Of a stretch of DNA of 2,353 nucleotides, positions 1 through 263 are shown piece by piece. Position 1 is the stretch's first letter, and every line of letters begins with the position of its first letter. The stretch is taken from NCBI RefSeq assembly GCF_003334335.1, contig NZ_QOWQ01000089.1. One strand, given 5' to 3'. This stretch comes from Escherichia coli. GTDB lineage: Bacteria; Pseudomonadota; Gammaproteobacteria; Enterobacterales; Enterobacteriaceae. The position numbers and the translations under genes were made by a program. Below the pieces are notes generated by a model that was given only the letters and a program-made list of their open reading frames with translations, was not told where the DNA came from and did no database searches.

Positions 1-263
1 CGAGGGAATTAGCCGATGCGAGAGCTGAAAATGAAACTCTGCGCGCTGACGTTGCCGCTGGTCGTAAGCGCCTGCGGGTCAACGCCACCTGCCCCGGTAC
101 CGTGCGTGAAGCCACCGGCACCTCCGGCGTGGATAATGCAACCGGCCCCAGACTGGCAGACGCCGCTGAACGGGATTATTTCATCCTCAGAGAACGGTTG
201 ATGACAATGCAGAAGCAGCTGGAAGGGGCACAGCTATACATTCGTGAGCAATGCCTCAGATAA
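1..263 (+). CDS. Rz: Rz i-spanin (inner-membrane spanin subunit), C-terminal part; 5' end lies upstream of the window
   Basis: Frame 3 (codons from position 3) is open to the TAA at 261-263. Translation is ...RELADARAENETLRADVAAGRKRLRVNATCPGTVREATGTSGVDNATGPRLADAAERDYFILRERLMTMQKQLEGAQLYIREQCLR*, which closely matches the lambda Rz C-terminus as I recall it (...ATLRADLAAGRKRL...SGVDNA..PRLAD.AERDYFTLRERLITMQKQLEGTQKYINEQCR). It is absent from the ORF track because its start codon is upstream of the window. Confidence 0.85.
   Translation, partial: RELADARAENETLRADVAAGRKRLRVNATCPGTVREATGTSGVDNATGPRLADAAERDYFILRERLMTMQKQLEGAQLYIREQCLR
16..201 (+). CDS. Rz1: Rz1 o-spanin (outer-membrane lipoprotein spanin subunit), embedded in the +1 frame of Rz
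   Basis: 61-aa ORF MRELKMKLCALTLPLVVSACGSTPPAPVPCVKPPAPPAWIMQPAPDWQTPLNGIISSSENG. It has a signal peptide with a lipobox-like LVVSAC (Cys20), is proline-rich, and has a conserved PPAWIMQP..DWQTPLNGIIS block matching lambda Rz1 from memory. It lies entirely inside the Rz reading frame, the classical Rz/Rz1 arrangement. A GAGGG Shine-Dalgarno-like motif at 2-6 precedes the ATG. Confidence 0.85.
   Translation: MRELKMKLCALTLPLVVSACGSTPPAPVPCVKPPAPPAWIMQPAPDWQTPLNGIISSSENG

Follow-up and report, generated by a model that had tools for sequence, protein, structure and literature searches.

The Rz1 outer-membrane spanin gene embedded in Rz of a lambda-type lysis cassette from Escherichia coli

Phage lambda Rz/Rz1 mutants fail to lyse when divalent cations are present at millimolar concentrations. 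Rz1, the o-spanin of lambda (lambdap91, YP_001551744.1), is encoded by a gene embedded in Rz, and this arrangement is the textbook gene-within-a-gene; the first-pass annotation of the locus described here rightly presented it as known biology. Genetic analysis of the lambda proteins (Cahill et al. 2017, PMC5295617) identified Cys20 of Rz1 as the lipoylated residue, substitutions at C20 abolishing lysis, and showed Rz1 C29, together with Rz C99 and C152, to be the cysteines of intermolecular disulfides. In E. coli K-12, rzoD (b4510) of the cryptic prophage DLP12 is annotated as a prophage lysis lipoprotein and occupies the corresponding place within rzpD; the rzpD/rzoD lengths (462/183 nt) match those of lambda Rz/Rz1, which suggests, by gene length alone, a lambda-type copy. 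Other two-component spanins are encoded by overlapped genes, as in P2 (LysB/LysC), or by separated ones, as in T4 (PseT.3/PseT.2), and the T1 protein gp11 is a unimolecular spanin (PMC6139136).

The window (the whole stretch of E. coli DNA analysed here, 2353 nt) is 99.9% identical, with 2 differences over its full length, to positions 24886-27238 of Escherichia phage PhiR5_1 (PV340545.1). Its first lines hold the 3' part of Rz, the i-spanin gene (plus strand, 3..263), comprising the last 86 codons and a TAA stop at 261-263, and the Rz frame within the window translates as ...RELADARAENETLRADVAAGRKRLRVNATCPG...EQCLR. The open reading frame (ORF) list and its translation place the Rz1 (o-spanin) gene on the same strand at 16..201, with an ATG at 16-18, 61 codons and a TAA stop at 199-201; the translation is MRELKMKLCALTLPLVVSACGSTPPAPVPCVKPPAPPAWIMQPAPDWQTPLNGIISSSENG. 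Upstream of ATG16 the same frame contains a TAG (10-12) followed by one Pro codon. An Rz codon boundary falls at 15 and position 16 is one base beyond it, so that Rz1 is read in the +1 frame. The coordinates, the length of 61 aa and the approximately 186 nt read twice (183 coding plus the stop) that had been claimed for Rz1 were all correct, and comparison of 16-201 with the Rz frame at 3..263 upheld the claim of a +1 frame relative to Rz. Full embedding, which had also been claimed, is invisible from the window alone because Rz is truncated at the 5' edge; it was confirmed with the full-length Rz of PV340545.1 (155 aa), whose start lies 205 nt upstream of the window edge: Rz extends past Rz1 in both directions, Rz1 beginning 220 nt into Rz and ending 62 nt before the Rz stop. 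We conclude, with little room for doubt, that 16-201 encodes the Rz1 o-spanin of a lambda-type two-component spanin, read from its own start in the +1 frame inside Rz.

Rz1 matched the Pfam family PF06085 (Rz1) with an E-value of 2.1e-21, in an alignment of residues 20-60 (lipobox Cys to C-terminus) with positions 1-40 of the 41-position model, and matched PHROG 3198 ('Rz-like spanin') over its full length with an E-value of 1.3e-30; these Pfam and PHROG matches partly reflect DNA homology to lambda and are alone no proof that the frame is used. The Rz protein of PV340545.1 matched PHROG 13 (E 2.1e-76), and its hydrophobic N-terminus, which lies outside the window, has a mean Kyte-Doolittle hydropathy of 2.97 over residues 4-22. 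No NCBIfam model matched Rz1, Rz, Nu1 or the terminase A fragment.

The Rz1 precursor begins MRELKMKLCALTLPLVVSACGSTPP... and its predicted signal peptide (residues 1-19; 16..72, plus strand) consists of the n-region MRELKMK (R2/K5/K7, net charge +2), the hydrophobic core LCALTLPLV and the lipobox residues V-S-A. Directly after these comes Cys20 (codon 73..75), with which the mature protein would begin and which is the predicted site of lipid modification. The stretch ALTLPLVVSAC, ending in Cys20 and accompanied by K/R within the first 7 residues, agrees with a lipoprotein signal as judged by a pattern rule only (PROSITE-PS51257-type). Under the established '+2 rule', a lipoprotein with no Asp at +2 undergoes Lol-dependent sorting to the outer membrane; the +2 residue after Cys20 is Gly, not Asp, and outer-membrane sorting of Rz1 is therefore implied. 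Mature Rz1 (73..198, plus strand) has 42 aa, of which 11 (26%) are Pro, in agreement with the earlier description of a Pro-rich protein with a Cys20 lipobox. Within it, Cys30 (103-105) aligns with the disulfide cysteine Cys29 of lambda and PPAPP (112-126) aligns with the lambda penta-proline stretch.

Rz1 is 68% identical to lambda Rz1 (41/60 residues). The two genes share the start position inside Rz (Rz nt 221), the +1 frame, a Cys20 lipobox and a Pro-rich region followed by AWIMQP.PDWQTPLNGIIS, and they differ in the length of the product (61 aa in the window, 60 aa in lambda), in the lipobox (VSAC compared to VVGC), in the linker after the lipobox (GSTPPAPVP compared to TSKQSVSQ), in the proline motif (PPAPP compared to PPPPP) and in the distance from the Rz1 stop to the Rz stop (62 nt compared to 59 nt). 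All 11 mutation-sensitive lambda positions (C20, P32, P33, P35, P36, I39, P42, P44, W46, L50 and I54) are identical in the window, the lambda disulfide cysteine Cys29 is conserved as Rz1 Cys30, and Rz Cys99 (codon 90-92) and Cys153 (codon 252-254) align with lambda C99 and C152. The region that differs most from lambda Rz1 is the linker after the lipobox, which in lambda can be replaced by (Gly-Ser)3 with function kept (PMC5295617). Only one residue of the penta-proline stretch is changed, lambda P34 being replaced by Ala35, and the lambda P34 position tolerates alanine (PMC5295617). At most, it can be noted that PPAPP occurs naturally in this lineage in place of the lambda PPPPP, exactly at the alanine-tolerant position.

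ORF length was dropped as evidence that the second frame is used. When the synonymous codons of Rz were shuffled with the protein held fixed, a +1 ATG ORF of at least 61 codons arose in 26% of 20,000 trials, and uniform synonymous resampling of Rz gave one in 9%. Since 26% of the shuffles match the ORF length, the case rests on homology and conservation. The same chance rate would suit a reading in which the +1 ORF is an unused by-product, kept open and lambda-like by the composition of Rz and by DNA homology to lambda, and profile matches in the overlapping frame would likewise follow automatically from the 78% DNA identity to lambda. We regard this reading as extremely unlikely, given how the frame behaves in relatives and where it differs from lambda. 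All of the sensitive lambda residues are retained, and differences fall in the replacement-tolerant lambda linker (residues 25-30). Position 78 of the window, the sole difference from PhiR5_1 inside the overlap (G compared to A), is silent in Rz1 (Gly21, GGG/GGA) and exchanges Val and Ile in Rz. The +1 ORF is intact, with its lipobox Cys, in 11 out of 11 phage relatives, and the frame is kept even in SfI, Klebsiella phage Kp4884-3 and the P22-like UAB_Phi20, where Rz1 is only approximately 50-52% identical.

The lipoprotein pattern was found in all 11 of these relatives, Kp4884-3 departing from the K/R rule only if read from an upstream Met chosen by the script. A broader sample was taken from IMG/VR, in which 120 loci were gathered via an unrelated marker downstream of Rz and yielded 102 complete Rz genes (77 distinct sequences). 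Every one of the 77 distinct Rz genes, which between them encode 48 distinct Rz1 proteins, keeps the +1 ORF intact, with a lipobox whose Cys is followed by 30 residues or more. The first-pass annotation had named the lack of a lipoprotein signal, or a stop codon in this frame among relatives, as observations that would count against the gene; the lipobox pattern is present, and no stop in the +1 frame was found among the 77 distinct IMG/VR Rz genes or the 11 phage relatives.

The host gene also bears on the by-product reading, as the third codon position of Rz is the second position of Rz1 within the overlap. Divergence at Rz third positions was lower inside the overlap than outside it in the comparisons with lambda (0.23 inside, 0.49 outside), 933W (0.06 and 0.31), cdtI (0.08 and 0.43), SfI (0.40 and 0.62) and Kp4884-3 (0.44 and 0.70). 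The contrast was significant in these five informative comparisons (Fisher P from 0.012 to 7e-7), with the general caveat of the test that it could be inflated by mosaic ancestry. No contrast was seen in the comparison with P27 (0.11 inside, 0.12 outside), probably due to mosaic ancestry. The constraint on Rz third positions within the overlap speaks against an unused frame, and the lower divergence there shows signs of purifying selection on the second frame.

Some of the IMG/VR Rz1 proteins (among loci L020-L139) look mosaic themselves, with an N-terminal half of the Stx-phage type, MRELKMKLCVLMLPLVVSACGSTPPAPVPCVKPPAPPAW, joined to a different C-terminal domain, AMMPPSNSLRLLDETFSVSETESSATRQH. 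The two parts appear to join at the conserved PPAPPAW motif, an arrangement suggestive of recombination within the embedded gene.

Two start codons were considered for Rz1. A GAGG Shine-Dalgarno-like site (2..5, plus strand) of consensus level lies 10 nt upstream of ATG16, and the anti-SD duplex was calculated at -6.4 kcal/mol for ATG16, compared to -3.0 for ATG31, -6.2 for Nu1 and -6.6 for A; a value of -6 or better is reached at 15% of the positions in the window. If the gene were real but started at ATG31 (Met6), the product would be a 56-aa precursor (MKLCAL...) with a shorter n-region. Such a start would accord with the retention of Met6 among close relatives, with the one Lys that would still stand ahead of the hydrophobic core and with the consensus-level-only Shine-Dalgarno support for ATG16; it is nonetheless improbable, as the anti-SD duplex is the weaker of the two, an aligned Met1 is present in 11/11 relatives, Met6 is missing from SfI, Kp4884-3 and UAB_Phi20 (the three most distant relatives compared), and the Met1-to-Lys change in lambda Rz1 is lysis-defective, abolishing lysis (PMC5295617). 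ATG16 is thus retained as the start of Rz1; both starts lead to the identical mature lipoprotein.

The expression, lipidation, localisation, complex formation and lytic function of the window's Rz1 are inferred from lambda, its close homologue (PMC5295617, PMC6139136). Once exported, the 61-aa precursor would receive its lipid at Cys20 and be cleaved by signal peptidase II; with Gly rather than Asp at +2, it would then be delivered to the outer membrane and reside in its inner leaflet. There it would form a homodimer through a disulfide at Cys30, and its C-terminal region would bind the periplasmic C-terminus of Rz to give a periplasm-spanning complex. With the peptidoglycan destroyed by holin and endolysin, this complex would disrupt the outer membrane, probably by fusion with the inner membrane, and the Pro-rich PPAPP region would be the putative fusion motif, essential to this step.

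The surroundings of the gene are those of a lambdoid late region. In PV340545.1 the lysozyme gene R lies upstream of Rz, and in the prophage of E. coli JE86-ST05, which is 96.6% identical over window positions 1-263, the order is class II holin, lysozyme, Rz. PhiR5_1 carries approximately 1.4 kb with four small hypothetical ORFs between lysozyme R and Rz (positions 1383-2795 of the PV340545.1 locus, L001), unlike lambda, in which R and Rz abut; in the JE86-ST05 prophage the insert at this place is shorter and holds two small ORFs. Downstream, the 12-nt cohesive end GGGCGGCGACCT at cosN (631-642) is identical to the lambda left end; the two ends of the virion chromosome are therefore joined within the window, with Rz/Rz1 as the final gene ahead of cos. 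The cos flanks (approximately 584-672) are almost identical to the lambda cos region, and the cosB region (approximately 680-818) has diverged from it. Beyond cos lies Nu1 (819-1367, plus strand; PHROG 57, E 2.6e-67); terminase A begins at 1339 and is present up to its codon 338, where the window ends (plus strand; PHROG 15, E 6.8e-179). The window holds a second, ordinary overlap here, the A start codon (ATG, 1339) lying 29 nt ahead of the end of Nu1 (stop at 1365-1367) and in another frame, in parallel with the 26-nt nu1/A overlap of lambda. Lambda, 933W, HK629, P27 and DLP12 all carry bor after Rz, on the opposite strand; the window lacks it, and its Rz stop and cosN are only 367 bp apart (264-630). 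A consensus scan of positions 1-900 found no terminator after Rz.

It is very unlikely that the cassette is a decaying prophage remnant, in which Rz and Rz1 would be intact by sequence and now without a lysis function. Similar sequences occur in 2143 of the 5426 complete E. coli genomes, at a median of 2 copies per genome, and many of these are probably in defective prophages, as such a reading would have it. Against it, the PhiR5_1 record to which the window is nearly identical is titled a complete phage genome in GenBank, with the host given as E. coli C; an intact cos site, Nu1 and A adjoin the cassette, and both the Rz and the Rz1 frames are intact. The intact o-spanin gene of a lambda-type pair is thus the reading that we keep, and for Rz1 itself no novel reading survives.

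Between the Rz stop and cosN lies a conserved non-coding block of approximately 185 nt (388-573, plus strand), which was found in approximately 400 phage records and in at least 120 IMG/VR contigs. In 113 of the 120 IMG/VR loci it follows Rz, on the same strand and at a gap of 12 to 2769 nt, and only its 5' half is present in lambda and in K-12 DLP12, between bor and the next gene. GenBank records call ORFs on the block in differing frames and on differing strands, PGAP calls nothing, and every reading frame is closed in at least one of the 66 distinct variants of the block. Small ORFs between Rz and Nu1 (176-382 on the minus strand; 381-506, 458-664 and 529-720 on the plus strand) were rejected as genes, PHROG searches returning nothing or only marginal partial matches, to phrog_6954 along 22 residues (E 9e-5) and to phrog_26210 along 11 residues (E 1e-3). 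Nor is the 381-506 ORF conserved, since the window's CATGAAC is CATTAAC in most relatives, in which the frame of the nearest start codon consequently contains a TAA.

For the plus strand of the block we propose a fold that comprises 8 helices with 45 pairs (98.4% paired); it was derived from the tested sequences themselves, which are mutually related. Two-sided changes occurred in 11 pairs, compared to 5.3 in column shuffles, and none of 500 shuffles reached 11; the covariation score was 0.161, compared to at most 0.057 when partners were slid by 1-3 columns. G-U pairs numbered 419 compared to 18 A-C combinations, an excess that points to the plus strand, the strand of Rz, Nu1 and A, as the one that would fold. 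Helices 7 and 8 cross, and a pseudoknot or alternative hairpins would therefore be formed. Searches of Rfam with the window and five related loci gave no match at E-values up to 1, and known prophage sRNAs (AgvB, AsxR, STnc100, Esr41 and others) were rejected as the identity of the block, having no Rfam match there; AgvB and AsxR map to a moron site 3' of PR', a different position from the block (PMC4104026). The core sequence of the block was not found in the papers searched, in a shallow literature check. The covariation is consistent with a structured RNA on the plus (late-transcript) strand, possibly with a pseudoknot. We suggest tentatively, at rather less than even chance, that an undescribed RNA, either a cis-acting element or an sRNA, could be encoded by the block on the 3' side of the lambdoid lysis cassette.

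Rz1 is annotated in lambda, 933W, HK629, UAB_Phi20 and K-12, and is unannotated in PhiR5_1, cdtI, P27, VT1-Sakai and SfI, as well as by PGAP in the RefSeq E. coli JE86-ST05 prophage (96.6% identical). The statement in the first-pass annotation that gene callers which forbid overlaps miss Rz1 is thus borne out by its omission from five phage records and one PGAP genome. Kongari et al. 2018 counted 196 unidentified o-spanins among 528 two-component spanin systems and blamed the bias of gene callers against overlaps (PMC6139136). As GenBank and PGAP records omit Rz1, proteomes and lysis-cassette inventories derived from them lack the outer-membrane subunit of the spanin. The practical value of the present observation lies in annotation, and nothing in it is biologically new. 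ORF length proved a poor criterion for overlapping genes; the argument is carried by conservation of the second frame and by reduced third-position divergence in the host gene.

The Rz1 copy in the window is genuine, ordinary and already known, a routine member of the lambda Rz1 family, and it has close counterparts in Stx-converting and related lambdoid phages. The Rz1 proteins of 933W (NP_049508.1), VT1-Sakai and E. coli prophages are 95-97% identical to it and also 61 aa long. This Stx-phage type of Rz1, the commonest among the IMG/VR loci, has the same GSTPPAPVPC linker and PPAPP motif and is set apart by two or three substitutions, with Val10/Met12 where the window has Ala10/Thr12; the C-terminus of the 933W protein is ERG, compared to ENG in the window. 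The similarity to 933W does not extend to the neighbouring genes, 933W having a different terminase and bor after Rz, whereas the phage of the window has a lambda-type cos/Nu1/A module. With the spanins of P2, T4 and T1, Rz/Rz1 shares its overall job, the bridging of the periplasm by an outer-membrane lipoprotein and an inner-membrane anchor in the final step of lysis (PMC6139136). The gene arrangements of the P2, T4 and T1 spanins differ from that of Rz/Rz1 and there is no meaningful sequence similarity to them, Rz1 matching the Pfam LysC family (PF23793) only at an E-value of 0.16. The window Rz1 belongs to the embedded class of two-component spanins.
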